In this document: piece by piece, positions 20,933-60,409 of the stretch | How positions within the stretch are numbered: the first letter of the stretch is position 1 | Layout: every line of letters starts with the position of its first letter | Origin: Trichoplax sp. H2 | Lineage: Eukaryota | NCBI GenBank assembly: GCA_003344405.1 | Contig: NOWV01000127.1 | Coordinates: forward strand, 1 to 64,000 | DNA: 64,000 nt | Direction: 5' to 3' | Made by a program: the position numbers and the translations under genes | The notes under the pieces: generated by a model | What the model saw: the letters and a program-made list of their open reading frames with translations, nothing else | What the model was told of the DNA's origin: nothing | Database searches by the model: none

Positions 20933-23900
20933 ATGAAAATAATCAAGTTGTTATCACTGGTCATCATTTCTATCCACTGTATTTTTACAGTTCAAGCGCA
21001 AAGTAAAATATTATGATCAATTAAACCCTTTAAGAAATTAAAGTAGTGACTTAAATCGTCGGTAGATAAATAGATATTGAAGGGAAATAAGTGGAACTTG
21101 TATTTTCTAAAGTTAATAGTAGAATGCTGCCTAGCAAAATTTTGCTTTATGTATATTTTTCCAGTATGGTATGAATAGCATCTTATTTCTTAGTTCTATA
21201 CGCAAAGCACTCGTACTGTGAACTAGGTATGTTAATTAATCGGTCTATTCGATTAATAAGGCTATTGAACATCAGTTCAGCATCTATACTGTCTATTAAC
21301 TAGGCTAGGCTTTATTACGATACTAGGAAATAGGGAAATCACTAGGTCTAGAGTTCACTACATGGATAATTCTATAAAATGTGATGTTGAAAAATGATCA
21401 CAGTTACCGATGGGAATAGAAGAGTAAAGAATTAGTTATGAAATTGACTGCGTTATTCTAACATGTTATGATCACGCATATTGTACAGAGAACAGCACTG
21501 ATAGGATATGTAATAATAATTATTAACAACTAAATCAGGTAGTTATCGAAATTCTATGCTAGGATACGCTACTGTACTTGTTTGTCTTGATAAAATGAAA
21601 TTTCGGTTATACTGTTTATTCGTAAATCAGATAGCTATCGATTTTGGATTCCAGTCGCACCTAAATTATATCTACTAACACTGAGTTATCATGATTATTA
21701 AAGTTTAAAATAATTACCGGTACAGTATACCCTACTACACGATTCCATTGCAAGCAAACCAGATAGCGTAGTCGTCGATTTTGATAACTTTGAAATTAGA
21801 TTCGTCTGATTCGATATTGTTATTGAAGTTGATAATTATACCCGTATGCTAGCATTCCCTTATTACATGATGTACTAAAGGACGTATTTACTGACAACCT
21901 TACTGATGTTTATTGATCGCTTTTATAGTATCGCGGCAAGGTGATGTTCACGAATCTAGCCGTGGCAGAGAATTTAACGTCGTCATCATGTATGATGCCC
22001 CACTGTTCAATAGGATACATATAACCTCCTTCGATCATCCATGTGAAGTCATTGTAACTACTAAAGTCGATAATAAGGCTACATCTTATTCGATACCCGC
22101 ATGGGAAACTTTGACTATAACCCCGAGTATAAGCACTACACTTCAAACTATCGGAGTTTCCAGCAGAATTATAAACATCTTTGCCGATCAAGATGTTTCT
22201 GTAGGAGTATACCAATCCAGGTCGACGAAACAAGATGCATATCGTGCATTACCAGTCAGAACATATGGCAAAGAGTATGTTATAGGGCTATACAATAGCA
22301 CAATGGGAAATTCGCGATTTAGTATTGTAGCAACCGAAGACAACACTGCCATTAGTATACGTACTTCAGCTACGTTAACATTCAATTCACAAACTGCATC
22401 CTTAACTGATCCGGTCAATATCACCTTAAATAAACATCAAGTCTTCTATTATAGTGCTTTCACAGATTTTACCGGTACACAAGTCTCAGCTAATAAACCA
22501 ATAGCCGTATTTGGTAACAATATGTGTGCAGCGTTATTGGAAGGGCAATCTACATGTAATTACTTAATTGCTCAATATCCATCCGTGGAACGTTTAGGGA
22601 GAATTTATGTCCTCATTATTAATAATCAAAGAGTCGCTGATGTATACCGCGTTATTGGAGCATATGATAACACTGTTATCACAGCAACACAGCTCAGCTT
22701 GTCTACTACTATCAATAAAGGGAATTATTACGAATTTACTCTCACAATTCCAAGAGCTACAGTATTACAATGCAGTGAACGTTGCTTACTCATGCATTAC
22801 GATCGAGGCGTAAAAAGTGCTGGTTCTCCAAGTCAACCATCCATGAACATTGTGCCTGCAGTCGATCAATTCATGACTAACTACTTCATGTACATTAAAA
22901 GAACATCTCCGCTCTATACTGCATATCCATTTATAACTATTATTATTCTAACTAGTTATAAAGATGGAATTCGTCTAAATAATCAACCACTCAGTTCCCA
23001 TGGCGTAATATGGTATGAACGAGCAGCAGCAGGTGCTACTTATGCTATCACATCCACCACCGTTTCTTCGAGTGGTAATGGTTATTTTATCAAGCATATC
23101 ACGCCCAATGTGAGATTTGGATTAATAGAACACAGTGAATCAACTAGTAGGTCATTAACTAGCCTATCTGGTGGTTTCCAATTTCCCGCAACCTATCGCT
23201 GTAAGCTTATTAATAATACAGTAATTACTATTTTAAAACAGTGTTGCTTATGGATACTAGCGTGATTAAATTACAATTATGAAACTGCGTTCTAATGGTA
23301 GCATCAGTAAATATTATGGTAGTGCAATTAATTATTGATGTCTTATTTTGATTTTAGCATTTATTACTGTGGTTGAAAATCCAATAGCACAAATAGTACA
23401 TGAAAATCAAGGATTTAACTTAACCTGCAGTGCAATCGGTTATCCATCATTATCCGTTGTTTGGTATAAAGATAATATACTGATCACCGCGAATGTGCAA
23501 AGAGCTCCATATTCTGGCAATTCAACATTAACTGTTACCTCAAGTTCTTCTAGTAATGCTGGATCATATTATTGCCAGTTCTGCACTAGTATTGGCTTAC
23601 TAAATAGTGCATCAGCTCAAATTATTGTCTACAGTAAGTGTTACATTTATCATTAGTAATTTTATCATCTCTATAATCCGTGCCAATAATTCTGCTTACT
23701 CTTTATAATAGCCAAACCTGTTGTCAAATCAATTATTGGTAACATTTCTCCAATAGCTGGACATAATTTGGTCTTAACTTGTGACTATACCTCTAACAAT
23801 AATGCTACTGTTACATGGTTGAAAGATAATATCGTAATCGCTAGAGATACTTATTTTAATCTAACTACACTTCGAATACAAAACGTATCCTTGGCCGATG

Positions 23901-26900
23901 CAGCTAATTATACTTGCTCCGTCGAAAATTTGATTGGAACACACAATTTTACCGCAATAGTAACAGTCAGAAGTAAGTTAAATTAACGATATTTTATCTA
24001 GATTCGTTATTAGTAATTGTATTTGTAGCAATGAAGACAATGGCTCTTACTGACATGTTAAAATAATAACTTTAGCGAATTGTGATTATGGCCCGAATCA
24101 CTTAATAATTTTATCTTGAATATTACATACAAGAATACACTCGTGCTGTAGTCACTAGTTATTAGATAGAATGACATCATACAGACTGTCTTAACCTCCC
24201 ATAAAACTGAAATGAGATTAGCAGCTATGCTTTGACCTGAATTCTCTCTTCATTTTTCTTCCGAACAATTACACTGCAGCGTTTTATATCTTCATTCTTA
24301 TTTACATCAAAATCTCCAAACACTGTTATATAGTATTCTTATATATGTATTTTATAGTAATAGAACTAGTACAGTATGTAATATACTCGTAGAGTATTAG
24401 ATATTATAAGATACTCTATTGAGAGTAAGCAGAACACTACAGGATGTAAGGACTCAACAAGATAGATGAATAAAGTTACAAGAAATCAGCTCAGTTATAT
24501 AGGATTATGATAACTTGTTTACACATAACATACACGAAGTAAATAGATGGTAAATAGATTTAGTCTATGATAATGTCCTATAAGAGATAAATTTACTGGT
24601 ATTTGTTAATATTACCATCTCATAGGAAGACTTACGATTAATCTCACATTTACATAGAATCAATATCATTAGAATAACGATAATATGTCTATATTCGTAT
24701 AATAATATCAATAGCAAATAACTATTACAATGCCAAACAGTAAACATGTTGATCATAACATCATAGTAAATAGCCAGTATGTTACACCGTATACGATACA
24801 GTAGTCTCCCGACAAAGTTATAGTGCAGCCTACGAGTATATAGATACAAAGAGTTATACAACGAGATAATTATAGGAGGCAATTGTAATCCGTAACATAT
24901 TGCTATCGCTAACTGTAAATTAAAGTTATAAATACAACTTAGATCTTAGTACACTATGTAACTGCTACGTATGATTCACTCATGGCTAGATAACTTGGGA
25001 TATAATCGAGAGAGGCGATCTGTATTAGAATTATAAGGCCACTTTGAAATTTAGTTTCATACATAAATGTTAATATAATAATTAGAAACAATCAGCGACC
25101 ATCTAAGAAAGATGTTTATTAGGGTTGTATACAATGTAAGCCAAGCTAGAAGCTTCTGATCAGTATATAGCTCAGTTTTAATACTTTCAGGTAAATATTT
25201 TAACATTCATAATTAAGCACCAAATTATGGCTAAGCACACTTTTTCTATAGGGCTATATTCAAGTTCATGCTTTAACAATGTGTGAGATATGTAGGCAAT
25301 CGGCCTCTCTTCATTATTAGAATTCTTTTCTGCCGATTGAGTACCGATAACAATGTCGGAAATATCGATTTAGAATATGTACAGGCGGCGTAGATTAGCT
25401 ATCTCAGAACAGAGATCTCAGTCAATGTTGTCTTGAAGATTTCGTATGCTTGATCGCTCTTGACTGAACATTCCACCCTTTCATCCTTTGCCTTCTACAA
25501 AATACTTGTTAGTAAAGCGAATATCGTGACGAATTGCGAGGCTGTCATGCAGTCGATGCCGATACATAGAATCATACAATAAGATAATAAGAAGCGCTAG
25601 TAATCTGTAATAAAAGTAATAGGACATTATCGTAATTATCAAATTAATAAAACTATCGCTTAGTGACGATATTAAATCATCGGGCTACGATAACAAAAAA
25701 TTTCACAGTAAAAGATCATTTTCAAATAAATGTGGTTAAGACACCATCGCAATATATTTAGATTTAACCCAGAACTAACATCGCTCGTTAATACTATCTG
25801 TAGTATTTACTTATATCGTCTTTCTTGTGTACAATGAATCTATTTTAGTATTGAAGAATCAGAATCGTCATTCTATTACAGAATTATGTTCAAAAGTAAC
25901 ACCAAATATTATATTTTCATCGGTGATGACTACATCTTAAAGCATTGTAGAAATAACTTGAGTTCATAATCATAGAATTATTGCGATAATCTAATTTTAT
26001 GCATATAGTACCAGACCTAGATTACAAGTATTAGCAGTAAAGATGTAACAGAATTCAGATTGTAACCATCTTGAATCAGAAATACTATTGATGATCACAT
26101 AGCATTGTGCGCATCTGTAATAAGATCATAAATTTTATTAATATGATGTAATTTATCGAAAATCAGCTTGTCAGTACCATTTTAATACGCTTAATTTAAA
26201 CATTAACGATAGAACTAATTATGCTGAATCAAATCAGGTCTTCTCTTTATTATAAAAAAAGAACTGTTAACTGCACGAGTATACAGAAACAACTAGTGGG
26301 CTTATAATTTGACACTGTATTAGATACGGTATCGAGTGTCATCAAATAATTAGCAGTTTGGTACTCTTTCCTAACATAATCACAAAAATCCACCTTAGTA
26401 AAATATAATTTCGATCATGATTTAATATTTTAATATGATTAAACTCAGTCTTATAGATTTGTAGTACTGTAAGACCTAATTTCATAGAATTGAATTCTAA
26501 TAACAGCATAAAATTCTAATATTCCACATCATTCTTTATTAATACTACATAATCTACGGATAGTCACTAGTCACTAGTCACTGGAATAGACTAAGTGTTT
26601 CCTAGTATCTAAATAAAGTTGGATAGCACCATAGGAAAACAAAGTGTAGTCTAGAATAATATCCATTTTATATCAGAATTCTTCATGTATTAGTATTTAT
26701 TATTATCGTAATATTTGACATATTTCATAACATAGAGAGCAGAAAGAATATTTTAATATCGAACGTAATTCGGCATTGAATTACGAAAGAATTCCTTTGT
26801 GAATTTTTTTAATAAAATATTTCATATTCAATTTTTGCTACGAAACAGTTATAGCTATCTTTAGTTACTTCTAACCAAATTCTATATCAATCTTATCTGC

Positions 26901-29900
26901 TAAATTTACTTTAGTTAGTCCATTTATTGTCCAAAATCCATTGAATGTTACCATCGACTCTGGTGATACATTTAAACTAGTATGTCAAATACAAGGCGAA
27001 CCTAGTCCTACTATTTCTTGGCTTAAAGATAACAAAAAATTACTGGACTCCTCTTATTCCACTGAGCCGAGCGGGTTGTCTACTCTACTTATAAATAATA
27101 CGTCAATTTCGGACAGTGGCAGTTATAAATGTAGAGGACAAAATTCTGCTGGCGCGAGTACGACAATGGATGCAATTGTGATTGTTTATTGTAAGTCTGC
27201 CAGAATATTGATATTTACTGCGTAATTGATAAAGACTTACAAAATAGCCAATAGAAGATGTTACTATATTCCAACACTAATCAATAATTATATGATCTTA
27301 ATATAATAGTCATTTATCTAATGTAGTTAATATCATATGCACCAATTTTTGTAATTATGACGTTCTTCTAATAACCTGTGAAATCATCACATTAGATGCT
27401 CCAAAAATACTCCTTAATCCTAGCAATACTACTATTGTCGAAGGCGATAGAATCGAACTGCAATGTACAGGAACTAGTTTACCGATCTTTAGCGTAACAT
27501 GGCTCAAAAACAATCAGCCAACGACTTCTGATTTCACTACCTATACTAATGCAAGTAGTACCAATCGTACGGCGACACTCGTTATCTTCTCAGCTAATAT
27601 TGGCGATGACGGATTTTACCAGTGCAAATTAACTAACAGACTTGGAAATATTACTAGTATGGCTAGCCGGGTTGAAGTTCAATGTAAGTGAATCAGACAA
27701 GTACCCGTAATTATCACTTGAAATTGATTTACTATTATATGAAACACGCCATGGAGAATAATTTGATTGACTGCGAGAAAACTTAGTCTAACTAAATGTT
27801 TGCCAGATAAATTGTACGCTATCTATATTAAAATAACTTTTCATAACTATTCTATTTTGTAAGTATAATTGTTACTCATTTTAAAAAAATTCAATTTATC
27901 CGAAACATATAGACATATTTTAATTTAAGTATCAGTTATATCAGCTGAAACACATATAATCAACTGCATCGCGTCGATTTACTGCGATGAATGCACAAAA
28001 ACCTTTTATGAAACAATAACTTTAATGCTCAAAATCTGATATATATCATTGACAGTTAGATTTTAAACAATTACTAATATGGACATCTATATTCTTTCTA
28101 CTACATATTATTGAAAATACGTGAATGATGTACCCGATTCTACAGTTGCACCTCGTATTATAACAGCACTTACATCCTCTAGCCAATCAGTTATAGAAAA
28201 TAGCGCAATAATATTAAATTGCCAAGCAAACGCAAATCCTGTACCCACTTTTACATGGTATAAAGATGGTATCGAAATTAATAGAACAACTTACTTATCG
28301 ATATCGTATAACCAAAGCCAAATATTGTTAACCAACGTAACTGAGATGGACGCTGGAAGCTATAACTGTACCAGTACCAACCTTATTGGTAGTGCTAGCA
28401 GTAATATGGACATTACTGTGTACAGTAAGTCGATCAGTATTATAGACTAATAAGCCCAAATGACCTGTGTTCTCTTAAGCTGTGTGCTTAGGCAACATCA
28501 TAAGGTATTATAAATCAAAATTTGCATTGATTATTAATGAAATATAAAATATTTTGTGATCATTTTTAATGGTGTAGCAAAACCCTTCGTGATCGCTTCG
28601 CCACAAAGTGCTAATATCTACGTAGGTACATCTATATCCTTGAACTGTAGCAGCGATGGCTATCCACAGCCGAATATTACTTGGACACGAAATGGTGCTG
28701 TCATTACATCATCAAATGATCAAGAAATACTATCGCTTATTAATGTTACAACCGAACAGTCCGGAAAATACCAATGTTTATTTCGAAATGCTGCTGGAAA
28801 TATATCAAGCAATGTTGCTACCATTATCGTCTATAGTAAGTTCAAGTAATACCAGACATTGTAAATTTATGTTACTACTTACCTACTAGCATACTAGTCT
28901 ATAGCATGTCTAACTTTTCGATCCAAGTAAGAAGTAGCTTAGGTCTGTTATTGGTATGACAATATCTCGTAAAGTAGCAAATGGCTAACTTACTATCGGT
29001 AGCAAAATGTCAAATAAATTTTCAGTATATTTACAATTTTATTGCCGAGATACATGGTTAAGAATTGGCGTGATCTTAGTGATTTCTCTGTGGATGTCAA
29101 ATTTGTTCATTTTGACTGGACTTTAGAAAGTGACTTCTTGCTTGAAGTATAATCGCTCATTTAAACATTCTAACTGCTTAGCCAGTCTAGTAGTATAAAT
29201 TGTAAATGGCAAACAATCAAATTGTCTTCTTTTCTTATACAATGTTTAGTTTAAATGTCATGTATTGAACTGGAGTTTCTAACTTTAATTAATTATAGCT
29301 GCATTGGTTGTAACCTCACCGAACACAATAGTAGATGCTCCTATCGACCAAAAATTCAGCTTGATCTGTAGTTGTTCAGGCATACCTCTTGCTACTACAG
29401 CTACTTGGAAAAGAAATGGCACTGTCTTAAATAACCTTAATTATTCTATCTCTATTAACAAAATCGCTTCATCATCGGTTATGACCACGTTAACTATTGA
29501 TGCATCAACCCACGAAGACGCTGGCAATTATAGCTGTGCTATGTCAAATAATTATACAAGCAGTAATACTGAACTTATTTCACTTACAATATTAGGTAAG
29601 CAATCAAGACCCACTATTACAATTATTTCAGTCATGAAACCTTAGCAGAGCCTATATTATCACCATACTATATCTTACACCTAAAGATTGTCACGTCAAA
29701 AATTTAGTCTACTATTTTAATACGATACGGGTAGTCAAGTTTTAGTTTACTGTAATATTAAAAGACTCCGTTAATGATTAGTTTTATATATTATACTGTA
29801 GATGGAATACAGCTTGATCCCATAGTATATAAAACAATTTAGATAGACGTATAAAATCAGTGAAATATTCACCTCAGTATATTTCAACAGTACAATTAAA

Positions 29901-32900
29901 TAATGAATTATCACTATTATCGTTTAAATCCTCATTACCTCGACTTTTTTTTATTATATTAGCTCATTAGAAATAATTATCACGATATAATGTTATTTAG
30001 ATTATTATTTTTGTTATAGCATGTTTAATACGGTGCGTTGGCAAACAAATCTTTATTTGTTGTAATACTTTAGTTGTAATGAATTAACCTGAGGATTTAT
30101 TGCGACTCCCTTGCTATTATTATTACTGAAGAAAGACGGAGATATAAAATTGTATTTATTCTACTAAGCTATAGCGTGATTTAAACGTTAAACTTCTTTT
30201 TGGGGGTTATGATTAAAATGCTAGAACCACCGTGGTCTGTACAAAGTGTGCAAATATCAAATATCATGCCACGATCCTTGACAATATCCTGGGATCTTCC
30301 TATATTTACTGGAAATACGCCGTTAACTAACTATTCTGTAACCATTACTAATGTCGATAATCGAACAATTGCAATTAACTGTTCATCAAGCATCGTCACT
30401 AACGCCTGTGTCGTGCCTCCAACGATAACATCAGTCAATTTTAGCGGATTAAAACCTAACACCTTCTATTATATTTTGGTCTGGGCAAGTAATGCTGTTG
30501 GTAATAGCGGAATAATATCCACTTCGTCCACAACTAATGAAACAAGTACAAAATAGTCAATACAAAAAAATTATTCCTATTTTAAATTAGTATAAATCAG
30601 CGTATTCATATGACTGATGATATCATCACTTCTAAACTGCAAGTAAACCCGATATGTACTGTTACTGTTTTAGAAGTAACTCATCTTATCCGATTATCTT
30701 TATGTAATTATTACAGATCCTGAAGATACTGTCAATAATCTATATGCATTGGGATATAATTCTACCACTATTCGAATAAAATGGACACCACCTAAGCTAC
30801 CGAACGGTCAAATCAACTACCGATTGTACCAGTGGAAAGCTACTTACCCTTATAATGTCACTGATATACAATCAGCAGTTTTGTATGATGGAGGAAGTAC
30901 TAGTTTTGATTCTACCAATTTAGAAGAAAATCAAGTTTATTTTTACCAGGTCATTCCATATAATATTAAGTATGGCCTGATAGGTCCAATGGGAATGATT
31001 ATAAATGGCACAACTCATGAAGACGGTAAGTAAATTCGTAAATAAAAATAATTGTGTTGTATTAATTAGGATATCTTCACGATTACGTACATTATAGATT
31101 TTAAATGTGCTATCTTCTAGTAGTACCGTCTGAATGAGCCAGTATTTTTGCACGATTACTTTTGAATACTGAGATTTCGAATTACAGTAATACCTAGTGT
31201 AATATTCGAAAATGTTAATTTCTACCAGTTATAATCCTCTTTTGCATGTTGTATCATAGTTCCTAGTGCACCTCCAACAAATATTAGCGTTATATCCACA
31301 ACTCCGTGGTCAATTTCTGTTACGTGGTTGCCGCCACCACTATCCCATCGAAACGGTGTTATTATGAATTATAACATTTCCTATTACTCAACAAAATGGA
31401 GACATGGCGGAAGCACACAAGTTAGTGACGGTAAAACAGTATCAGTTCTTGGAGGGTTAATACCATATACTGCTTACAACATTACAATTAAAGCAGCGAC
31501 TATCATTGGATATGGGCCCAGTAGTGACGATATAATATCTGTAACAGAACAAACTGGTAAGAATTACGTGCTATAACATATTCTGTTATTAAATAGTACC
31601 TACTATCATCAAGATCTACTTTAATTTTCATGGTGTAGACGTCGTGTGATTCAAACATTGTAAAAACTTGATACATAACAGATAACTTTGTAAAACGTTA
31701 TACACAGAATATCTGATGATACTAATTTTGACTTGTTACGATCTATTCTACATCCTCTATTATAGTTCCTAGTGCTTCTCCAGTTAACGTTAGCGCTACA
31801 ACAGTATCGGCTTGGTCAATAGTTGTTACCTGGCTACCACTACCGATATCTTATCAACATGGCGTTATAATTAATTATCATATTTCATATTATTCTAGCG
31901 AATGGCAACATGGTAATACTATACAAACCACTGGAAGTGCTATATCATTAGTACTTAACAGATTAATACCATATACAGATTATAACGTAACAGTTAAAGC
32001 TGCCACTATCATCGGATTCGGACCTGAAAGTAACGGTATAGTAACAAGAACCTTCCAAGCTGGTAAGCTTATTACATGCTATAATAAGTTAAACTATAAT
32101 ATGATTTTAAGCATTAGCAGCTACGGATATCAATATGGTTATGTAACGGTAGCAAAATGCATACAATATTTTATTGAACGAGATTAATTCTTATTATGAT
32201 TACTTTTATTTTGCCCTTATTATTATAGCTCCTGGTGCTCCTCCAGCTAATATTAGCACCACATCAATATCGGCTTGGTCAATCTCTATTAACTGGCTAC
32301 CACCACCATTAATCGATCAAAATGGAATTATAATTAATTATAATGTTACTTACTATTCTAGTAAATGGAAAGATACCGGTACTATACAAGTCGATAACAA
32401 TAATACATCATTAGTGCTTGACGGATTAAGGCCATATACAGATTATAATGTAACAATTAAAGCGGCTACAGTCATTGGATTCGGACCTGACAGTATGGGT
32501 ATAATAACAAGAACATTACAAACCTGTGAGTATTACGTGCTGTGAATAATCACGTCTTCGTTTATGACTATTGACTATATTATTATCATTTTAGCGTAAT
32601 TTATCTACAGCAAGATATGAATATATATACAACACAGTACGATAAATTAGACAATATCTTCTGATTTACCTTGAATTTACCTTTATTCTAATAGTTCCTA
32701 CTGCTCCTCCAAGCAACGTTAGTACGATACCAATTTCCGGTCGGTTAATCTCTGTTGCTTGGCTACCGCCACCGATATCTGATCAAAATGGTGTTATAGT
32801 CAATTATAACATTTCTTACTATTCTAATGAATGGAAGCATGGTGATACTATACAAGTTAGCGGTAATACAACATCCTTGCTTCTTGAAGAATTAATACCG

Positions 32901-35900: not shown

Positions 35901-38900
35901 TTTCAATAGTTATTACCGTTTGAATTAAATACAGCATCTGATGATTTTTTCTGGCGTCTATCAGTTACCGTTATAGTAATAGCATAGTAATACAAAAAGT
36001 ATCGTAGGTAAAAGAACCTCCCAAAAAATGATTGATGAAGTAATTGTGTTAGATTTCTATACAGACGTTACTTTCATCTACAGTATTCCTATCTATTAAT
36101 TGAAACTATAGTTCGTGATAATTTTCTAATACCAGTTAAACATATATTTGCCCGCGTAGTATTTAACTCTTAATGTAAACTGTTAACAGAGCGCCAAATA
36201 TTATTGACCATGTCCTTAATAATACTATATTAGGCTTTATGATGTACCTAGATCTATGTTCGGCCATAATAAATTATATTGCCACCCAAGTAAATATGAC
36301 TGCTGGTAATTCCAGCAGAAAGTAGTATTAGCAATTATTTGCTATATATTCGAAAAGATCAAAATATAACAACTTGTAAATTTGTCTATGCGATTGTAAA
36401 CTAGAAGGGTAGTTGCTAGCCAATACTAAATAGTAGTTTTGTAGATGCAATTCAGAAGCGTAATAAAATTTACTTTATCCTCAGGAATATAAAAAGATAG
36501 TATCATGATGTTATTCTCAATGCATTTCATTTTATTTTACTATTATATAAACTAGTTGATACCAGAAAGACAACGTAATGGTATCGTTCTTGGATATTAT
36601 ATCGTCTTCCGTAATACCAAGTTTGGCTTTTTCGATAATCGTACTATTTACGTTAACCAAACAACGACCAACGTCAACACTAGATATTATAGTGCTGCTA
36701 ACCTAAAGTATTATTCAACCTATCTAATATTCTTATACGCTTTTACTGCTGCGGGCACAAGTCCAAAAAGCTTACAGAAATCGATTGAAACATTAGAATC
36801 AGGTCAGTATCCATGAAACTTTTAGTAAACTATCTTAATTTATTGCGTAAACAGTATTTTCAGGTAACGAAAAATTTATTTTACACCAGCTGCATGGATA
36901 TTTTTACAAAAATTGGGCGCCATTACGCAATAAAATATTATACCAATTCGTTATAGGCTTATTAATACTATAAAGTTTAAGTATACCTGTAAACCTATCT
37001 ACTGAACAAAGATATAATGTATAATAAGCGTACATATTGTTACTGAACATTCACTGTGTTTATATTCACTCGCAGTCCCTTCGGCATCTCCGATCAATGT
37101 AATGACTACATCTGGAACTTTAGCTGCTACATCAATCGTTATTAGTTGGAGTCCACCTCTGCTAGTCAATCAAAACGGAATTATCACAAAATACAAAGTA
37201 TCATATTCCCTGCAAAATAAAAATAGTTTGTCTGATAGCACTATTATTACGCTCGGAAATGTTAATCAGCACTCCATATACAATTTGCTGCCATCTACTA
37301 ATTATTCCATACTAGTAGCGGCAGCAACTTCGGTTGGCTTCGGACCATATCATTCACCCGTTACTCATTTAACTTATCCAGCAGGTAATCGACTAAATTT
37401 AAAGATTAAAATCATTTCACACTACTAATACAGTCTTTGATATTATTTGTAACCAAATGAAATAGTGGCTCCAAATGTAACCCAACAGCCTCGGAACAGA
37501 ACTGTTGCAGCTGGAACAGATATAACCCTAGAGTGTAGAGCAACCGGTGATCCAGTACCTACTGTGCAATGGTTGTCCAATGGCCAATTAGCATCATCCA
37601 TATACAGCGTTGTTACTAAAGCTGGTTATGGAAGTTTATTCATAAAGAATAGTAATACAGCAGATAATGGAACTTATCAATGCCAATTTACAAATAGTAA
37701 AGGATCAGTAATGTCGAACTCTGCCTATATATACGTTAATGGTAATCAAACTACTCCATTGAGTAGAAGTTTAAATATATTTTTAAGTCAACAGCAGCCC
37801 GATATTGCTTTTCATTTAAAAGTCATATACTAGCGCTAATAATTTCTAACGTATAGAAAAGCAATCGTTAGAATATACCTTGAAAGAAATTTATATTGAT
37901 ATCCTATTTCTTTTTTTGTGATTATATGGCATATCAGATGGCAACATTACAGGGTTTTGTCTTGGTGAAATTACAAGTGATATGAAATGGTCTAAAACAT
38001 ATAACGGTTATACTGCGATAGCAAAATGCCCTGTATCTGCTAAAGGTAAAAATCTCTATTTTGATTTACATGTTAATTTTATCGCTTGCAGAATTGATTT
38101 CTAACACCCAATATACCTGTTATAAATAGTTTAATTTTGCAATTAAAGTTGTCTTCTATAAATTAAATATGATTCTATGATCAGGTAATGCTACTCGTTC
38201 ATGTAAGCTTAATACCAATGGCAATTCCGTATGGGATGATATCGATACGACTAATTGTGAAACTCCATCATTTGATGTTCTATCGGTCTTGGTAAATATG
38301 GAAGCCACAGTAGCATTTAGTCTTTTATCATATTCTTACCTAACTAGCATACGTAAAAAGCTCATCTATAATGTTTAAAATTAGATTTATTGATAATAGT
38401 TATAACAATATTATTATTTTCACAGCATGTTCTAACAACGAATATACATGATAGTGATAGAATATATTCTCTTTAAGTTAATACGTGTGTGCATATTATG
38501 AAGATTGGAAAGCTTATATTGTACCGTACTCATCAATCTTAATTACACACTTTTCATAATTTGTAAATTGAAAATTGCACCTACAATTTCACGAATTACT
38601 ACAATCACAATAATAACTGTCGATTGTAATTGCCGAACTTGTATTACTAAGTACACGTAAAAATGATTTGAAAGCTGTATATGTTATGCTACATATTTGG
38701 ATAAAATCCTAATATAATTATTGACGGATATTTAACAGACTCAACAACTTAATACAGTGGGTACCAATTTTTCTGAAACCATTATCGATGGTTTAGTTAG
38801 AACGACAACAGGCAGAAAGTTATATGGCGGAGATATTGTCATATCCGCCTCTATATTATCAAAATTGAATGAAGTCATGCCCTCTGTTTCTGAATCAGAA

Positions 38901-41900
38901 TTAAATGTAAGCAAAAGCAAATTTATTTTTCTTATAATAAACTGTACTGAGGTCTAGATTTGCTGATCTTCCCAGAAATTGGTCACAATTCAAAGTAATC
39001 TATTCAATACTCAAAATAAAGAAGGGTGGAAATTTTCCCAAAAGGTTCGAGAAAATAATTCATCCAATCTATCTGATACCTATATATCAAGTTTCAAATT
39101 CTTTATAGTATAGTGATAAGGATAATTATTTTGGACGTATAAGTAGTTTATATTTTTGAAATTAAGAAATTATCTTACATTAGCTAGTGAAGTACAAGAA
39201 TTTTTGTAAATTGGAAATTGCTGTACATTTCTTTGCAGTTTTGCCGAAGCAGTAGTAACAACCAATCAATTTTAAGGAACTTGGAAGAATTTGCTAATAA
39301 GGCGACTATTCTATCAGCAACCAATAAGACAACAGTAAATGCCAATAATTTAGGTAGGCGATAATTAACAGAGACTATTCGTGATATCCATTAATGTAAA
39401 ATTATATTGTATATAAATCCATTTGGTAGTAATCATTGTTAATCTAAGCGTCACATAAAATGGAAATGGGTTCTAACGTACAAATTTTTGCTATACATTT
39501 ATTAATTAAATCATATTCATGCAATAGTACGTGTATTATTTTGTTAGCATATTCTGTGGAATTTCTACGAGATTTGCTAGCATAAATAAATACGAGAAAG
39601 TAATTCGCGCACAGAATTTTCCATTGATTAGTGTGCTAAGTCTTTTCTTGCTGAAAAAGATTCATTCAGCTATACTTTAATAAGTATCAATTGCAACGAT
39701 TATACAAGTGTAATTGCTGATGGTTAAATTTCTATCCATGTTTTTATTATTGAATCGCAGTGATAATGCATTCACAAAAGATATACAGTACATGCAACGA
39801 TGAACTACTAGTAGAAATATATATTAAGAACTAGACTGCATATCCTAAGCAATTATAATTCTGTACCGCTATTTTATCCTCAGAAACACTCATTTGAGCC
39901 TTTTAATTGCATTAAAGAGTCAGATAAACTACTTATGTATAACACTTACAAACAGACTATGAATGTATAAATTAAGATAAACTATTCTTTATTGGGTAAA
40001 ATGCGATTTTCGAGCTTATGCATATGTCATAAGCTAGCTTCGTGACAAGGATAACGTAAAGTAAATTTCTAATTTACTAAAGTCTCCGGGATTCAGTATC
40101 CCTTAACTATCTCACAAGAATTTAGACGTCGTTGTTTCTACGTTAAACGACTAGAGAAGTCCGATTTTATTCAGCTATCTACTGAGCTTAAATACCTTTC
40201 GGCAGCAGCTAGTATGAATGAGTCATCATAAGATTATGAAATTTAATTCATACTAGATAAGTAAATTAATACAGAAATATTTATAATCGTAGACATGTAC
40301 TGAATGATTCTTGATAATTAGACTACAGTATGTCCATTCACAGAATTATTCATGGCATCGTCTATAATTGAATATCTTCAGGATATTAATCACAAGCGTC
40401 ACAAGACATAGCACTATAATAAATTAACATCTGTTACTATATAAGAACTCTTACTACAACTGTGCAGCATAATTTACTGTAAGAAATAATAACTATTGTG
40501 GTTCTTACTGTAAGCCATTAATAATTGCCATCATATATAAATGTTAATTTACTAAATTTAGTCATTTAACTCTTCGTGGTAGTTCGTACCATAACAGTAT
40601 AGTAATAGATTAATAATTATACAAATTGTCTGAAAATATTCTGTAACTTGAAGCTGTCGCAATCTATGACCTTGATGGTGTATCTGCAAGTTCTGATTTT
40701 CACGTTACCGATGGTACAAATATGGCAACCGGAATACGAATTTCACTGCCTAAGGCTACAATCCAAAATAATCAACGTATGTACTCTTGTGTACTGTTTA
40801 TTTGATACTTGCTTCTACTATCAATGGAATTATCCAAGTTATTTTAATAGCGTAATATTAAATCTAAAGTAGTATTTTACTATAATATTATTGTACAACT
40901 GCACCAATAGAAATACGAATTGTAGTACGTAGCTAAACTAATCGAGATCGTCCAGAATATTTTTTAGTTTCAATACTTAAACAGGATTTATTTTTCTCAA
41001 TAATTGGCATAGTTATCAAAGCTGTTGTCATCACTTATAAAACCCTTAAGGAAATGATACCTTCTTCATCAGCTAACTCAAGGTATCTCAAACTACTAGA
41101 TATAAAATTTAATTTTTTGAGAACATTATTTAATGATGTTATAGTCACTTTTATGATAGTATTTTGAAATGGAATAAATATATTATTAAAGCAGGAATCT
41201 TTAGAAAAGATTATTACTTCTATAAATTATAACTCCGCCTGAACTATAGTACAGAAAGTAATTAATACTGAAAATGTGCTACTATTTGGGTATAAAATAT
41301 ATTTCTTTGTTAATACGAATAAGTTACTAAGTAATAGGTAGCTATAATCAAATTATAATTAGTAGAGATTTTGACTCGACTTTCAATTTCATATTAATGC
41401 TTGAAACTATCGTTGCCATAATTTTTGGATGTATTTATTTTTCTCTTTTCAATGAAAGCGTTGCTGGCAAAGATGATATTAATTTCGGTTGATAATATCA
41501 TTTTGAACTTATAAATTAAAAACTACTTAGTATCTTTAACACATTTTCAATGGTTCTAATAGAACTTATCCTTTCAATAAATCTAAGATCATCGATACAC
41601 GTACAAAGCAGAGTACTATAATATCATTTTCTAATCTACTACACCATTATAATATACGTTTTCCTACATTTTTGTAGCAACATTAATCCAGCTGGTAGTA
41701 CTATTCAAATTAATTCTCAAATTATTTCCATATCATTCTATCCTGATCGATATGGAAATCTCTCTCATCCTGTTCGAATAATATTTGAAAATACAAATGT
41801 TAGTTAAGTATATCATTACTTAAAAATACTTAATAAGGCAATGATCAATTAATTTCCTTAAAACAGTTTGTTATGATATATCGACTTTATCATATTATCG

Positions 41901-44900
41901 TATTTAATCTAGACAATTGAAAATAAGAATACAGCGAAAGAAAACGTCTGCGCATTTTGGGCTTCGGCACCAAGGTAAGTAAAAACTATTACAATTATTG
42001 TACACCGACAATTCAATAACCTTCATAGCATTTGCTAAAGTAAACAGAAAATCTTAATTCATTACACTGATTCAGTAGACCTGTCTTATACGTCATCATG
42101 AGTTTTCCTCCAACGATATCATAAGATTTCTATCTGATGATGTAGCACAATTTTTTAATGTAAAACATATGTGTATGTACTAATACCAATTTGAAGCTCC
42201 TTATCATCATGTCGATTTAAGACCTAGACGTGATAGTAAACTTAATCTTAGAAAACTATTATTGCATACTGTAGCCTTATCTTAATAGAATTAACCGATG
42301 AGATCTTCTGTTGCAAAGTACCTTATTACGGCTTAGCAACATCAAGTTAATCGAATCGTTGTAGGCAATTTTAATACATATTACAATTATAATTAACAGC
42401 ACACTATTTGGTTTCATTTGAATTTTGAATTGATAAATAGTCAATGCGGATGGGATTCAACAGGTTGCCGGACTGGATCTGAATCAAATTCAACACATAC
42501 AGTCTGTTACTGTAGCCATACTACTACATTTTCCGTTATAACAAGGGATAAGTTGGTACGAGTCTGTAATCATCATTTTTATTACTTTTATGTAATTGCG
42601 CCCAATTATTAATTATATAGGAATACCGTACTCATGCTATTTTAAAAACTGTTACATGTGTCTATATAGAATTCTGCAAGTATTATTTCTTATCAATTAA
42701 TTATCAATCTCACATAGGTTCAGAGTCTTCAAATTGAAGTTATCACCTATATCTGTTGTGGAATAGCCATCGCAGTCTTGGCCCTGACCATTGCTATTTT
42801 TGTTATGCATTGGAAGTTAGTATCGGCTAAGTATTAATATACCTATAATATAAGTCAGGTTACTGGTCTATACATTCCTGAGTAAATATTGTGAAGAAAT
42901 GCTATAGATTGAATAAACAATACCCTTTCGTATACCAATCCAAGATATTACTCACCTTTTTATAATAAAACCATAGCAGAAGTTTATTATTGATTTTAAT
43001 CACTTTCTAATAGGATTGCATTAAGTTTCTAATAAGTACCGCAGTTCATAGTTCTTGTAAAGTCCCCAAAAAAGAGAAAATTTAGACTAATGTCATTGAT
43101 AATAAAATTCAATCCTTCTATAGCACGAATATTTAATACTTTTTACTGTTACTGTTAGGGACGTCAAGAGCATCGTAAATGTCATGAATATCAATATATT
43201 TTTATGCCTCCTGATGATTAACATTTTGGTGATATCTGGATTAACAGCGATTTATTGGAAGGTGAATCAAATCTTTTCTACATTTTTATCATATTTAAAT
43301 GGAAAAGTAAACCTTTCTTTTAATTGAAATGTTGTGTAATCTTAATTTACAGCCTCTGTGTGTTGCGATTTCCATTTTCTTGCATTACATCTTTTTGGCT
43401 GCCTATTCTTGGTTATTAAGATGTGCTATTTGCATGCATTATCTATTTGCCAAAAATAAATTGGCACCTGGTAGCATTATGGGAAATTTTTTGACATGCT
43501 GTAGTAAGTAGAAACTAATACTTTACGATAAATCATAGAACGCTATATTGTATATAGATATGGTTGCTTTTGACGGAACAAAAATTTTAATATATTCTTA
43601 ACATTTTCAAATTGATTGCAGTTTTACCTGCAATCATTCCAATCCTAGTTGGGATAATACAAGTGTCCCGATATGGATTTGATGGATATCTAAGCCATTA
43701 CGCGTAAGTTTCATAGACTTAGGATAAGAGTATAGAACAAAAATTTTATGTTTTACTCGTAATTGAACGATCTACTTAGTTAAGATGATTTAATCATTTC
43801 TATCATTCATGAAAGCTAAAATTTATCTTAACTACATAGGTGTTGGTTAAGTACTACTCCACCTGTGGTTGTGACTTTTATCATTCCTATGATTTTACTA
43901 GCTTTGGTATGGCATGCATGGCAGTCACCTCAAAATTACAGATCAAACTGAATCCTATTTTTTTCTAACTACGGTACTATAAATCTGTCAAAACAAAATA
44001 TAATTACATATTATCTGAAACTTTTAGGCAGCACTCATCTACAATGTATTAACTACAACAAGAGCTAGCAGTAATGCTAGAGTTGTTTATGATTATAATG
44101 ATGAAGAGCTCGAGATAAATAGGTAAAAAATCTATATATTAGACTTATTTTATATATATGAAGTTAGCGACATTAAGTTCTTTTGTATTGCTGTAAAACC
44201 TGATTTAAGCCTAGTTGCATCGGAACATTAATATTAACAAGGCTCATTATTTTTTGTAATTGATTTCTGTTCAGAAAACATTTTCGCCAATCCTTCGTAG
44301 TCTTAGTGACTTTCATTATGACTAGTATATTGTTTGTGGCATTTATATCAACCAAAGATATCGTCTGCCAATATATCTTTGCCATTATCAGTCTGATTCA
44401 AGTAAGTCTTCAATTAATCATTCTTACCCGTAACTCATGTAAGTCAAGTTCACATCTGCAGTAGTTATGTATTTACTGGTCTAATATACTGCGTATCTTT
44501 ATAGTAAGTATAAAGTGTTTTTCTCGTATGTTAATTATAAAATTCTTGTACCAGATCGCTAGCGTAAGACTAATGAAAAATTAAAAAATCTCATTGATGC
44601 ATGATTCTTTAAATATAATATGAAATGCTATACATGATAACGGACGTTACTTCTCAATAATTAATCTTTCGTTATTGAATAATATCATATGCTATACAAT
44701 TTTAGAAAGGATTTTTGATCAAAATTGATCAATTTATACTAATTTTTATACTATTGGGAGTAGATATGGGTACTGGGTGGAATATAATAGTGTTCAAAAG
44801 CTAAATGTAAACATTCTGCCTGATATTATTTAACTTACAGTACTTCTCTGATTAACTTGAGTCAAGCAATAAATGAATTGCCAAAATACTATATTATTAT

Positions 44901-45634
44901 AAATACAATAACTAATGCTAACTTATTAACCGATTTCTTATTATAGAGCATTTACATCTTACTTTTTTATGCCCTTAAGAACAAAGAAGTATGTAGCATG
45001 GCATAGGATAAAGTCTTGAACTTATTAATTATTGTGTTCTTAGATTATAGATTGCATGTTATATATCACAAAATGATAACGCTATAAATCGTAGATGATA
45101 ATATACTCATTTATTAAGGATCGATCAACTTGAAAATTTATTATTGCTATAATTGGCGTCCATAAGACTATAACTAACTGCTATAATATAATTGAATGAT
45201 ATAGATTCAATGCTACTAATTCATTCAGAGAATAATTTAACTAACTCTCTGTATTGACATAGATACAAATGGATTGTAAATCGAAGGCAAAAAATCATAC
45301 AGCGTATGAATTAAAGCCAACTAAGGGCAAATCTTCGTAAGTTGATGATTGATTCAAGGAATACACCGCCTTGAGTAATTGAGACAATTGTATACGTACA
45401 ATAGCTGATATTTCAATCTTAACAAAATATATCATACACTCGCATTTATATAACGTATATTTCACTTTATACCGTAGATCACACTTAACGCCAGCGAATT
45501 ATAACAATTATGAAGATGTAGGTGAAGACGCAATTTATCAGGTAAAAAATTTTTTACTGTCAAACAAGTGCTATAAAACAACTGATACAAAGTAATGTAT
45601 TCATTCTTTATGATAAAAATAGGAGGTGGATTAA
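20933..45634 (+). CDS. Giant adhesion GPCR: SP-IgGFcBD-Ig(7)-FN3(14)-Ig-HormR-GAIN/GPS-7TM, ~46 exons, ~3250 aa
   Basis: Continuous phase-compatible GT-AG exon chain from signal-peptide exon 20933-21002 (MKIIKLLSLVIISIHCIFTVQAQ) to final mini-exon 45623-45634 (EVD*). Domain motifs are given in the sub-features. Joining all exons into one transcript is inferred from splice phases. Confidence 0.85.
21929..23200 (+). CDS. Adhesion GPCR exon: IgGFc-binding protein (FCGBP) N-terminal domain
   Basis: 1272-nt phase 1-1 exon. Motifs SRGREF, DAYRALPVRTYGKEY, IVATEDNT, DFTGTQVSANKPIAVFGNNMCA, CNYLIAQYPSVERLGRIY and PSMNIVPAVDQFMTNY match the IgGFc_binding family pattern. Confidence 0.85.
23358..29595 (+). 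CDS. Adhesion GPCR exons: seven I-set-like Ig domains, one per exon
   Basis: Phase 1-1 exons 23358-23633, 23712-23972, 26915-27190, 27396-27683 (absent from the ORF track), 28146-28424, 28578-28835, 29299-29595. Each has the LxC...W(x)K/R...L...(D)xGxYxC pattern. Confidence 0.92.
30225..37384 (+). CDS. Adhesion GPCR exons: fourteen fibronectin type III domains
   Basis: Exons 30225-30545, 30717-31025, ten 297-nt exons (31260-35719), a split domain at 35808-35878 + 36556-36802, and 37076-37384. Typical motifs PxxPPxNV...SIxVxWxPP...NGxIxxY...LxPYTxYxITVKA...GFGP. Confidence 0.93.
31260..35719 (+). repeat. Tandem array of ten 297-nt FN3 exons with partly homologous introns
   Basis: Exon starts 31260, 31766, 32229, 32695, 33157, 33601, 34021, 34496, 34965 and 35423. 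Each is exactly 297 nt between AG and GT. Introns after copies 7-9 share recognisable sequence. Confidence 0.95.
37466..38291 (+). CDS. Adhesion GPCR exons: membrane-proximal Ig domain plus hormone-receptor (HormR/HRM) domain
   Basis: Ig exon 37466-37741. Exons 37938-38045 and 38185-38291 give FCLGEITSDMKWSKTYNGYTAIAKCPVSAKGNATRSC...VWDDIDTTNC, the C-W-CP-G-A-R-C-W-C HormR pattern. Confidence 0.88.
38739..42555 (+). CDS. Adhesion GPCR exons: GAIN domain with GPS motif
   Basis: Exons 38739-38906, 38976-39044, 39239-39353, 40654-40776, 41013-41082, 41678-41798, 41913-41974, 42441-42555. Motifs ISLPK, YKTL, INSQIISIS, LSHPVRIIF and CAFW...WDSTGC...TVCYCSHTTTFSVI. Confidence 0.92.
42718..45634 (+). 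CDS. Adhesion GPCR exons: class B2-like 7TM and cytoplasmic tail
   Basis: 7TM exons 42718-42815 (VITYICCGIAI), 43159-43261, 43353-43503 (LCVAISIFLHYIFLAAYSW), 43622-43703, 43840-43906 (CWLS), 44028-44122, 44275-44401 (QYIFAII), 44947-44988 (IYILLFYALKNKE). Tail exons 45263-45336, 45478-45541, 45623-45634. Confidence 0.85.
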
Positions 45635-46149
45635 AGACTTCAATAAAAACAGTAAAATGTTCGAATGGCTTATGCTATATTTAGTTGCCCAGTTTTACAA
45701 ATTATTCAACTAAATTTTGAATATAAATAAGTACATATATATAAGTATTATCAGGAATTGAACTTAATTAGAACAGTTTCATCTGTTCATTGATATCGTT
45801 TATGATTGGCATTTATCAAGACTATTTTCTTAATATCAACATTTACAAACGAAAACTGAACAATACAATTAATTATTACTACGTGGATAATTTAAAATAG
45901 CAATTACATCACAGCATGACCGATTAAGCGTTTTATGCTACGTATTCATAAAGTGAATTTCTTGTATTGATTTAAAAATTTTAATATGTTAGCTTATGTT
46001 TACTGTGATTCTTGCCCACCGGTAAGTGTATAGTATAAGTAACTTGTCTAACGTGGAGTTTTAGTTCTATTTTCAATTCAGATGTTTGTATACGGGTATT
46101 GATTAGGCAACATTAATAAAAGGTATTGCATAAGCAAATGGTATAATAG

Positions 46150-48583: not shown

Positions 48584-49139
48584 GTAAATATTCTAATTGT
48601 GGTCAATTTCAGCAAGATATCTGTTACGATGCGTAAGCATGTCCTAATTACGTGTGGCGACTGTATATAAGCCCGAGTAGAAAATATATCGCTCAGTTGA
48701 TACTTCTCTAGTGTACGATAAGGTACTATACTTTCGTTGTATGAAGTAAAAACTCATAAAACTAATCTTACAACAAGCCGCTTATTATACTTGTGAGGAA
48801 GTTGTTAGTCTTACAGTATCTCTCCGTAGTTAGTTGGAGTGACTAAGTAGCTCGTAAGTTAGTTGATTACTCACATTAGAAGGAGTAGGTAGTGCGGTGT
48901 GAGTGACACCTATGAATATGTTAATCAATTGAAATAGCTAAATTAAAGTAGGTGCTGAATATCCTGAAATGAAATATTGCTAATGTAGTTGCAAAACTGT
49001 GAGCTACAGTAACTACTGCATCATTAGTAGCTAATAGTACGTTAATTAACTACCCATGCTTGCTCTATAATATACTGTACTGTACATAAGTGTACAATAA
49101 ATTAATCAATTTATGCATCCTAATGTTAGTGATTAATAG

Positions 49140-59490: not shown

Positions 59491-59499
59491 CAAAACAAC

Positions 59500-60045: not shown

Positions 60046-60409
60046 GCGTGTTTAACTTCGTTTTAGAATTTCGAGGTAAAAAATCGACTTCCTTTATTGC
60101 AATTAAAATGACTTAATATCATATGTACTGGTAGATGAAGGTTCAGTAAATATTACTATATTGTATAATAATAAATCAATAAAATCAAGGGAAAATGAAC
60201 GATATGCCCCTATATTTTAAAATCAATCAATCCAAAATCAAAACAGTCCCTGCCAATCATATTTCCTACTGTACTCGTACACTACAATAAATTCATCCAT
60301 TCAATGCTCGACTACGGTAGGATGGTGTTTCATTTAGACTGGATCGGAAGAGTGAACGGTTGACCAGTCCACCTCAATAAACCAGCAAAATAGTCAGCAT
60401 CTCCATCGA

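Follow-up and report, generated by a model that had tools for sequence, protein, structure and literature searches.

Adhesion G-protein coupled receptors (GPCRs) form the second-largest class of animal GPCR, and their function is largely set by the ectodomain. Among early-branching animals, sponges have adhesion GPCRs in which Ig, fn3, HRM and GPS domains occur (Krishnan et al. 2014, PMC4302439). In the placozoan Trichoplax sp. H2, 28 of 36 C-type lectin domain (CTLD) receptors are secretin/adhesion GPCRs (Kamm et al. 2019, PMC6321704), and such lectin-headed receptors have been proposed as pattern receptors that link recognition to GPCR signalling (PMC6321704). The FCGBP_N domain (Pfam IgGFc_binding, PF17517) typically lies at the N-terminus of a protein, outside the cell, and no function has been established for it; its carriers are mostly secreted proteins, those in bacteria belong mostly to gliding bacteria, and for human FCGBP the binding of IgG was suggested (Lang et al. 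2016, PMC4948705). Here we describe a gene from a 64,000 bp window (positions 1 to 64,000, forward strand) of contig NOWV01000127.1 of Trichoplax sp. H2 (assembly GCA_003344405.1). We read it, with a probability of roughly 0.7, as a giant adhesion GPCR (class B2) encoded by a single expressed placozoan gene and working broadly as proposed below, with an FCGBP_N head carried on a long stalk of immunoglobulin (Ig) and FN3 domains. The residual doubt falls mostly on the mechanism, on self-cleavage and on the 3′-end, and not on the existence of the gene.

The gene resembles each of the described systems in part. It shares with the sponge receptors an arrangement of Ig, fn3 and HRM-like regions ahead of a GPS and a 7tm_2 region, whereas no FCGBP_N head is listed for the sponge proteins (PMC4302439). 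Like the placozoan CTLD GPCRs it places a recognition-type ectodomain on a class B seven-helix region in the same phylum, but the head of those receptors is a C-type lectin domain, no description of an Ig/FN3 stalk was found for them and 'IgG' is absent from the main text of PMC6321704. Vertebrate FCGBP also has an N-terminal FCGBP_N on an extracellular protein; it differs in being secreted and in having up to 13 VWD-C8-TIL units (PMC4948705), whereas the giant receptor is membrane-bound by seven predicted helices. None of VWD, C8 and TIL had a Pfam match in any exon frame scanned, and Ig domains follow the head; on this ground an FCGBP orthologue was ruled out. The ectodomain of vertebrate ADGRG6 (GPR126) is organised as CUB-PTX-SEA-HormR. 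Its GPS Cys/Trp framework (PDB 6v55) is shared with the gene described here, but ADGRG6 has H-L-T at the cut and has neither an FCGBP_N head nor an Ig/FN3 array. The order of Ig domains followed by FN3 domains is that of Dscam, Sidekick and the receptor PTPs, but a GAIN/GPS region and seven helices follow it in place of a single transmembrane (TM) segment.

No paper was found that joins FCGBP_N/IgGFc_binding with adhesion GPCRs, 7tm_2 or Trichoplax; such an architecture may already appear in Figure S5 of PMC4948705 or in the supplements of PMC6321704. The term 'IgGFc' is absent from the accessible text of PMC4302439 and of a 2025 survey of GPCR diversity (PMC12716839). FCGBP_N was found named only in PMC4948705, the main text of which does not contain 'GPCR', and PF17517 was found named in a mussel paper. 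The combination of this head with an adhesion GPCR is already in the databases, as the public record RDD39919.1 (P0079 below), and no describing paper was found. The gene encodes a large receptor whose head type is undescribed, in a phylum known for odd adhesion GPCR ectodomains, and it adds FCGBP_N, found in no paper on adhesion GPCRs, to the head types of that class.

Gene model and spliced RNA

Between approximately 20.9 kb and 45 kb the + strand of the window presents a ladder of short open frames, with a GC content across the gene of ~28-36%. Frame-keeping GT/AG pairs were enumerated and then corrected by RNA joints, which gave a model of 42 exons (20933-44438, + strand) with 41 of 41 introns GT..AG and no in-frame stop. 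The model encodes 3,199 residues from the start codon to the end of TM7, in the order signal peptide, IgGFc_binding head, seven Ig domains, 14 FN3 domains, one further Ig domain, an HRM-like region, GAIN/GPS and seven TM helices. Pfam scans, which were run on single-exon frames and not on the spliced protein, supported each domain type, HRM and GAIN only below threshold on single short exons. Hydropathy placed a signal peptide at residues 3-21 and seven helices 3′ of the GPS. A single phase-compatible gene with this architecture had been proposed in a sequence-only reading of the window, and the stop-free chain, the Pfam support and the spliced RNA contigs described below bear this out. The domain count of that reading (signal peptide, IgGFc, 7 Ig, 14 FN3, Ig, HormR, GAIN, 7TM) matches the 42-exon model, and its start at 20933 is the start of exon 1.

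RNA runs were chosen with 36500-43500 as the query. Eight runs contained 0.22-0.23 of the sampled words, near the exon share, and three others contained ~0.8 and were DNA-like. Four runs from four studies were mapped on 23000-42999, namely X4, which is RNA on record, and X5, X6 and X10, which were labelled 'RNA?'. At least 38 joints were found and 15 of these were listed; all 15 are GT..AG and lie at splice sites of the model once their offsets are allowed for. Twelve joints from 36799 to 42439 were each present in all four runs. A 3,900-base contig of X10 (depth 50) extended from the head exon to FN3-4. Position 30222 lay at its base 2674, and the preceding 2,673 bases equal Ig1-7 (1,935) plus 738 bases of the head exon. 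A second X10 contig (record 3, 3,348 bases) extended from the end of FN3-12 through Ig8, HRM and GAIN to TM1 and then for 1,212 bases more; its 395 bases before 37073 equal 247 + 71 + 77, the sum of both FN3-13 exons and the final part of FN3-12. The interval from FN3-4 to FN3-10 was bridged by X4 record 5 and X6 record 12, and a loose contig end beyond the TM1 exon read into the TM2 exon in all four runs. The head and the stalk, and the stalk and the GAIN/TM1-TM2 region, are joined in spliced RNA contigs.

Depth per bin divided by the predicted exon fraction gave an independent check of the model, including those exon boundaries that had no listed joint. For X10 this value was 49.6-51.4 in 10 of 10 exon-bearing bins between 23000 and 31670, and 60.1-62.9 in 10 of 10 between 35673 and 42999. 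For X4 it was 32.9-33.0 in five exon-bearing bins (23000-28335) and 17.8-19.7 over the 3′ part. The intron bins at 24334-26334 had a depth of at most 0.85. Taken together, bin depth and exon model agreed to ~1%.

It is very unlikely that the region instead yields two or more products from adjacent units, an IgGFc-Ig-FN3 protein (secreted or separately anchored) and a shorter adhesion GPCR (Ig8-HRM-GAIN-7TM), whose continuity is an overlap created by the assembly of repeats. Such an overlap could arise in the ten near-identical FN3 exons, which no single contig spans, although FN3-4 is connected to FN3-10 by X4 record 5 and X6 record 12, and X4 has the joint 35261>35425. Depth per exon fraction differs between the 5′ and 3′ parts (50 vs 62 in X10, 32.9 vs 18.4 in X4) and X5 has no depth before 33005; these depths, however, are per-contig means and are unable to rank the parts of the gene. 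Two similar placozoan proteins described below (P0057 and P0015) were deposited without a 7TM region, but the first of these is flagged 'partial' by its depositor. Contigs of X10, X4 and X6 each run from FN3-12 into FN3-13/14, Ig8, GAIN and the TM region, and the stalk and the receptor are therefore joined; the phases of the exon junctions are kept throughout without a stop codon.

Two further observations were made on the mapped region. In the intron at 39354-40653, the bins 39675-40341 had contig depths of 51.4 (X5), 16.1 (X6), 26.9 (X10) and 0 (X4). This stretch had no Pfam match in its two small frames, no Rfam match and no second copy in the window. A nested transcript or an alternative exon could explain the depth, as could a repeat whose expression comes from elsewhere. 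Between 23000 and 42999 the RNA contigs of the four runs departed from the window by at least 52 single-letter differences, several of them common to different studies, which is consistent with strain or allele variation.

Placozoan relatives, the head and the stalk

P0079 (RDD39919.1) is deposited as 'Adhesion G-protein coupled receptor D1' of Trichoplax sp. H2 and has 1,133 residues, with Pfam matches to IgGFc_binding (2.9e-42), GAIN (1.3e-7) and 7tm_2 (4.3e-16). The C-terminal 609 residues of the giant receptor aligned colinearly with residues 445-1080 of P0079, from the HRM-like region to TM7, with 24% identity (174 bits). Both proteins have a signal peptide, an N-terminal IgGFc_binding head, a GAIN-aligned region, a GPS-like region and 7tm_2, and in the stretch before the GPS cysteines 16 of 28 residues are identical. 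P0079 differs in that it has no Ig/FN3 stalk, its head abutting GAIN, in that the two heads are only ~29% identical, and in that the His and Thr of the triad are absent at the aligned site. It is a paralogue and not the same gene. The sequence-only reading had presented the combination of domains as one not known from the vertebrate adhesion GPCR families; an IgGFc head with GAIN and 7tm_2 is not unique to this gene, since P0079 has it without the stalk, and uniqueness was to this extent overstated. A hydropathy screen of 163 proteins found four with at least four hydrophobic segments, and among these a C-terminal helix cluster was present only in P0079. A short and a giant form of one design are thereby found within one phylum.

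P0057 (RDD38184.1, 'Hemicentin-2, partial' of Trichoplax sp. H2) has 2,140 residues with 14 Ig stretches, and P0015 (TRIADDRAFT_61038 of Trichoplax adhaerens) has 1,135 residues and two heads. In both, as in the giant receptor, one or more IgGFc_binding heads are followed by Ig and then by fn3, with 32% identity to the giant receptor in the Ig region and 38-42% in the FN3 region. Unlike the giant receptor, neither deposited model has GAIN or 7TM. A search with the head region of P0057 against proteins of 1,177-3,745 residues returned only P0057 itself and one bacterial protein, and tblastn with six placozoan relatives revealed no second copy elsewhere in the window. The gene is one of a small family of placozoan proteins with an FCGBP_N head, and its nearest relatives are placozoan.

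The head matched IgGFc_binding with 177.2 bits (cut-off 25.6) over profile positions 1-279 of 297, directly after the signal peptide; by profile match and by N-terminal extracellular placement it is a member of PF17517. Its AF2 model was predicted to be all-beta with a mean pLDDT of 90.4. A HMMER search of the head exon against 1.84 billion representatives returned 4,667 proteins at E <= 1e-3, and the top identity among the best 150 of these was 41%. The highest scores fell to proteins with several heads, which came from vertebrates, an annelid and a mollusc. When the head exon was compared with proteins of 792-2,260 residues, a range that falls short of 3,200-residue proteins, there were 13 bacterial-type matches with 24-32% identity. 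With Foldseek no PDB structure matched the head model globally (TM-score <= 0.17), and phmmer of the head against PDB sequences gave no match at E <= 1. A sub-domain of the head (residues 6-110) resembled Thermotoga TM1070 (Z 10.4) and the Anabaena sensory rhodopsin transducer (Z 8.4) in VIA-align, from which no function is drawn. The predicted complex of two head copies scored 0.00, which carries no weight either way. Atlas searches returned IgGFc_binding and adhesion GPCR families with scores <= 0.80, which are leads only, and for P0079 there was no listed cluster of at least 50 members with both families.

The stalk consists of 22 Ig/FN3 domains in 23 exons, and 21 of 21 single-exon domains have phase 1-1. 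All eight Ig exons matched Ig families (Pfam E 9.6e-13 to 1.5e-19) and 13 of the 14 FN3 domains passed the fn3 cut-off (E 2.1e-5 to 6.1e-19). The remaining domain, FN3-13, is split over two exons, the larger of which reached 20.4 bits against a cut-off of 25 bits. Ten of the FN3 exons are 297 bases each and share 66-91% nucleotide identity, the closest pair being FN3-10 and FN3-11 (91%). The introns after FN3-9, -10 and -11 share 76-80% mutual identity, compared to ~50% for other intron pairs. The repeats, together with the lack of a head match above 41% among the best 150, suggest that deposited protein sets probably lack the gene or contain it in fragments. For annotation it represents a gene of 42 or more exons over ~24 kb with repeats of a kind that break short-read assemblies.

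Compared with P0079, the giant receptor has an insertion (residues 448-2592) between the head and GAIN, because the alignment of the two starts right after the P0079 head domain. We infer that the giant form arose from a short ancestor of head-GAIN-7TM design, a phase-1 intron of which received symmetric Ig/FN3 exons. The inserted exons would then have been tandemly duplicated as exon-intron units, most recently near FN3-9 to FN3-12. The reverse history, in which the stalk was lost in P0079, is possible. Read as an insertion, the intron phases and duplicated exon-intron units would show how the stalk was built and would make the gene a clear case of a receptor that grew by exon shuffling.

The ectodomain contains 88 N-x-S/T sequons, compared to 52.9 +/- 5.9 in composition-matched shuffles. 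The Ig/FN3 stalk (23358-37741) has 78 sequons in ~2,150 residues, with 3.2-4.2 per 100 residues in its parts, and the head has two in 424 residues. The heavily N-glycosylated rod that had been proposed for the stalk agrees with this enrichment of predicted sequons. Because the contrast between the sequon-poor head and the sequon-rich stalk is sharp, the head is likely to be an exposed binding surface. The usual length of an Ig or FN3 domain is 3.5-4.5 nm, and at this size the stalk would measure ~80-90 nm if extended.

GAIN/GPS region, seven helices and proposed function

The GPS exon scored 40 bits against a Pfam cut-off of 22.5, and TM1 starts ~30 residues after the site. All 15 matches of this exon among PDB sequences were adhesion GPCRs, with ADGRG6 the best (E 3.9e-8), and the four Cys and the Trp are kept as in ADGRG6. 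GAIN was matched in one 73-residue exon frame, below threshold, and the GAIN region is colinear with that of P0079, which passes Pfam (31.6 bits vs 26.5). Approximately 300 GAIN-aligned residues and the GPS lie between the HRM-like region and TM1, and the layout is for this reason not that of a secretin-type (class B1) receptor.

Seven hydrophobic segments were present at residues 2955-3196, and TM1-TM7 were colinear with the 7tm_2 region of P0079. Together with the 7tm_2 match of the TM3 exon this places the region among seven-helix receptors of the 7tm_2 type, with TM4-TM7 as predicted exons that have the colinear alignment with P0079 as their main support. Beyond TM7 there are candidate acceptors at 44465, 44505, 44706, 44949 and later, for donors at 44401 or 44438. 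Candidate C-terminal frames at 44465-44581, 44930-45016 and 45383-45592 had no Pfam match (10 frames scanned, including the TM exons).

Autoproteolysis of the GAIN domain takes place between an aliphatic residue, usually Leu, and Thr/Ser/Cys, with the Leu in a conserved hydrophobic pocket (PMC3321182). The giant receptor has the triad H-T-T where ADGRG6 and ADGRL3 have H-L-T, and its middle residue is not aliphatic. Self-cleavage is uncertain because Thr, and not an aliphatic residue, precedes the cut. Many accepted adhesion GPCRs are uncleaved, and H-T-T is therefore no bar to membership of the class.

The single gene could encode mainly a long adhesion or spacer molecule, in which GAIN stays uncleaved and the 7TM region is an anchor or signals without a released tethered agonist. 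The triad without an aliphatic residue before the cut would fit this, as would the missing His and Thr at the aligned site of P0079 and the case of BAI3, which can remain uncleaved yet reach the surface (PMC3321182). The 7TM region is also divergent, with 7tm_2 reached by the TM3 exon only, yet all seven helices are present and colinear with a 7tm_2 protein. The catalytic His, the nucleophile Thr, the four GPS cysteines and the Trp are kept as in ADGRG6, and in the strand after the site position +3 is Phe and positions +5 and +6 are hydrophobic, in line with the consensus. On this balance we consider a spacer function unlikely and prefer a signalling adhesion GPCR.

In the mechanism proposed for such a receptor, the sequon-poor head would be held ~80-90 nm out on the glycosylated rod and would bind an external partner (glycan, mucus, surface or microbe). 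Pull or binding would pass down the stalk to the GAIN domain, where a tethered-agonist strand starting at the second Thr of H-T-T would be exposed. The exposed strand could then activate the 7TM region and lead to G-protein or arrestin signalling. That the receptor recognises mucus or microbes, senses force or has an immune role is conjecture in this scheme.

Contact between the animal's own cells (adhesion, whether homophilic or heterophilic, or self/non-self recognition), as for Dscam and Sidekick, would be a different use of the ectodomain from mucus or microbe sensing, and we regard it as rather unlikely. Wiring and adhesion receptors, a kind that placozoans possess, usually have the Ig-before-FN3 order (PMC10084454), and the adhesion GPCR ligands known so far are mostly membrane proteins (PMC4302439). 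The many single-letter differences between runs in the Ig/FN3 exons would also suit a self/non-self role. The most distal element, however, is FCGBP_N, which is otherwise found on secreted mucus-associated proteins and bacterial surface proteins (PMC4948705), and the dense sequons of the stalk next to a nearly bare head point to the head as the binding surface.

Several points weigh against a giant adhesion GPCR that works as proposed. The whole gene is not covered by one contig, and none crosses all ten of the nearly identical FN3 exons. The 15 listed joints do not include 34792>34965 and 35878>36556, the latter of which comes from depth arithmetic only. Prediction from sequence is the sole basis for exon 1, for the part of the head exon upstream of 23000 and for the exons after 43189. 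The label 'RNA?' of X5, X6 and X10 is a guess, and the contigs do not define the ends of the transcript, so that a shorter secreted isoform may exist. The single-exon Pfam matches of HRM (E 0.033) and GAIN (E 0.027) are sub-threshold, and one of the seven TM-bearing exons reaches 7tm_2 alone. With Thr before the scissile bond, self-cleavage may be weak or absent, and the ligand, force sensing and G-protein coupling are steps that we infer.

Within the preferred reading we would suggest, very tentatively, that FCGBP_N-headed adhesion GPCRs are a distinct undescribed placozoan class in which an FCGBP_N ligand sensor is wired to G-protein signalling, and that in the giant form the sensor stands ~80-90 nm up, beyond the cell coat, for food biofilm, mucus or microbes. 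The wiring of FCGBP_N to a 7TM region offers a way to test what the domain binds and, if the suggestion is true, a signalling assay could here for the first time report on the binding partner and function of FCGBP_N.

Feature coordinates and other genes of the window

The exons of the receptor, the putative triad and the domains of the downstream gene frames are given in Table 1.

Table 1. Positions of the receptor exons and of neighbouring domains in the 64,000 bp window, with the evidence for each.
Feature	Position	Strand	Evidence
Exon 1: start codon and signal peptide, phase-1 donor	20933..21002	+	predicted; first ATG after in-frame stop, GT donor
Exon 2: IgGFc_binding (FCGBP_N) head, ~424 residues	21929..23200	+	PF17517 E 5.8e-52; 3′ 201 bases in RNA contigs, constant depth
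Ig1, phase 1-1	23358..23633	+	Ig_3 E 9.6e-13; depth fit
Ig2, phase 1-1	23712..23972	+	Ig_3 E 2.4e-12; depth fit
Ig3, 3′ of 2,942-base intron	26915..27190	+	I-set E 1.5e-19; depth of bin 26335-27001 equals 87 exon bases
Ig4	27396..27683	+	I-set E 3.5e-15; X6 contig piece 27396-27683
Ig5	28146..28424	+	I-set E 7.4e-17; depth fit
Ig6	28578..28835	+	Ig_2 E 1.8e-16; X4 joint 28835>29302 (3 letters between)
Ig7	29299..29595	+	Ig_3 E 8.9e-13; depth fit
FN3-1	30225..30545	+	fn3 E 2.8e-13; X10 record 1 pieces 30222-30545 abut 30717-31023
FN3-2	30717..31025	+	fn3 E 2.1e-5, 25.1 bits (cut-off 25); contig pieces
FN3-3, first of ten 297-base tandem FN3 exons	31260..31556	+	fn3 E 8e-14; 298 contig bases between flanking pieces, X10 record 1
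FN3-4	31766..32062	+	fn3 E 5.7e-13; contig pieces X10, X4
FN3-5	32229..32525	+	fn3 E 8.5e-17; contig pieces X4, X6, X10
FN3-6	32695..32991	+	fn3 E 2.4e-15; X6 record 12 piece
FN3-7	33157..33453	+	fn3 E 1e-13; joint 33452>33600 in 3/4 runs
FN3-8	33601..33897	+	fn3 E 3.6e-15; joint 33896>34020 in 4/4 runs
FN3-9	34021..34317	+	fn3 E 4.8e-15; joint 34316>34495 in 3/4 runs
FN3-10	34496..34792	+	fn3 E 6.1e-19; 3′ joint not among the 15 listed
FN3-11	34965..35261	+	fn3 E 1.3e-17; X4 joint 35261>35425 (2 letters between)
FN3-12	35423..35719	+	fn3 E 2.4e-17; last 47 bases fit 3′ contig depth
Mini-exon, first third of FN3-13, phase 1 in / 0 out, 71 bases	35808..35878	+	frame reading; depth of bin 35673-36339 equals 118 exon bases in X10 (61.6) and X4 (18.4)
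FN3-13, remainder	36556..36802	+	fn3 E 5.9e-4, 20.4 bits, sub-threshold; joint 36799>37073 in 4/4 runs
FN3-14	37076..37384	+	fn3 E 6.3e-14; both flanking joints in 4/4 runs
Ig8	37466..37741	+	I-set E 2e-19; joints in 4/4 runs
HRM-like region, exon a	37938..38045	+	HRM E 0.033, 15 bits (cut-off 26.2); joints in 4/4 runs
HRM-like region, exon b	38185..38291	+	no Pfam match alone; Cys/Trp pattern continues; joints in 4/4 runs
GAIN exon 1	38739..38906	+	GAIN E 0.027, sub-threshold; aligns with P0079 GAIN; joints in 4/4 runs
GAIN exon 2	38976..39044	+	joints in 4/4 runs; colinear with P0079
GAIN exon 3	39239..39353	+	joints in 4/4 runs; colinear with P0079
GAIN exon 4, 3′ of 1,300-base intron	40654..40776	+	joint 39351>40652 in 4/4 runs
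GAIN exon 5	41013..41082	+	joints in 4/4 runs
GAIN exon 6	41678..41798	+	joints in 4/4 runs
GAIN exon 7	41913..41974	+	joints in 4/4 runs
GPS exon	42441..42555	+	GPS E 5.6e-10; 5′ joint in 4/4 runs; 3′ donor predicted, depth fit
Putative autoproteolysis triad H-T-T, scissile bond between the two Thr codons	42517..42525	+	aligned to H-L-T of ADGRG6 and ADGRL3
TM1 exon	42718..42815	+	hydropathy; depth fit; loose end after 42816 reads letters at 43160 in 4/4 runs
TM2 exon	43159..43261	+	loose-end letters of four runs map here; donor predicted
TM3 exon	43353..43503	+	7tm_2 E 1.1e-4, 22.0 bits (cut-off 20.6), profile 76-117; splice sites predicted
TM4 exon	43622..43703	+	predicted; colinear with P0079
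TM5 exon	43840..43906	+	P0079 tblastn, 12/23 residues identical; splice sites predicted
TM5 end and third intracellular loop	44028..44122	+	predicted; colinear with P0079
TM6-TM7 exon, donor 44438 or 44401	44275..44438	+	predicted; colinear with P0079 to its residue 1080; hydropathy
Death domain	48316-48633	+	Pfam, 27.4 bits
COR-A	49209-49883	+	E 8.3e-7, below curated cut-off
Death domain	51526-51861	+	Pfam, 21.2 bits, just under cut-off

Just downstream of the receptor, frames of a ROCO/death-domain-type gene were present on the + strand (46134-51861). By eye, the frame at 46256-46705 is similar to the COR-like one (49209-49883), and it may represent a duplicated piece. Upstream of the receptor lies an exon of a sugar (MFS) transporter (8661-8945, + strand; Sugar_tr E 4.4e-18, profile 100-154). 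A single-exon sigma-class-like glutathione S-transferase (GST_N, GST_C_3) is encoded on the - strand (57370-57981) and is identical to a protein on record; it also showed 90% identity to a 189-residue ENA protein and 53% identity to a 'hematopoietic prostaglandin D synthase' of Trichoplax sp. H2, the nearest named protein. A search of the whole window against Rfam gave no match. The frame at 62119-63606 (+ strand) encodes 496 residues that are rich in Gln, Asn, Thr and His and coiled-coil-like, with no Pfam family at E <= 0.01. The stretches at 1393-1797 and 58483-60113 have 42-44% GC, several open frames on both strands and recurring 'YSTV/CTVQ'-like words, and in appearance they are repeat DNA, tandem or dispersed, and not genes.

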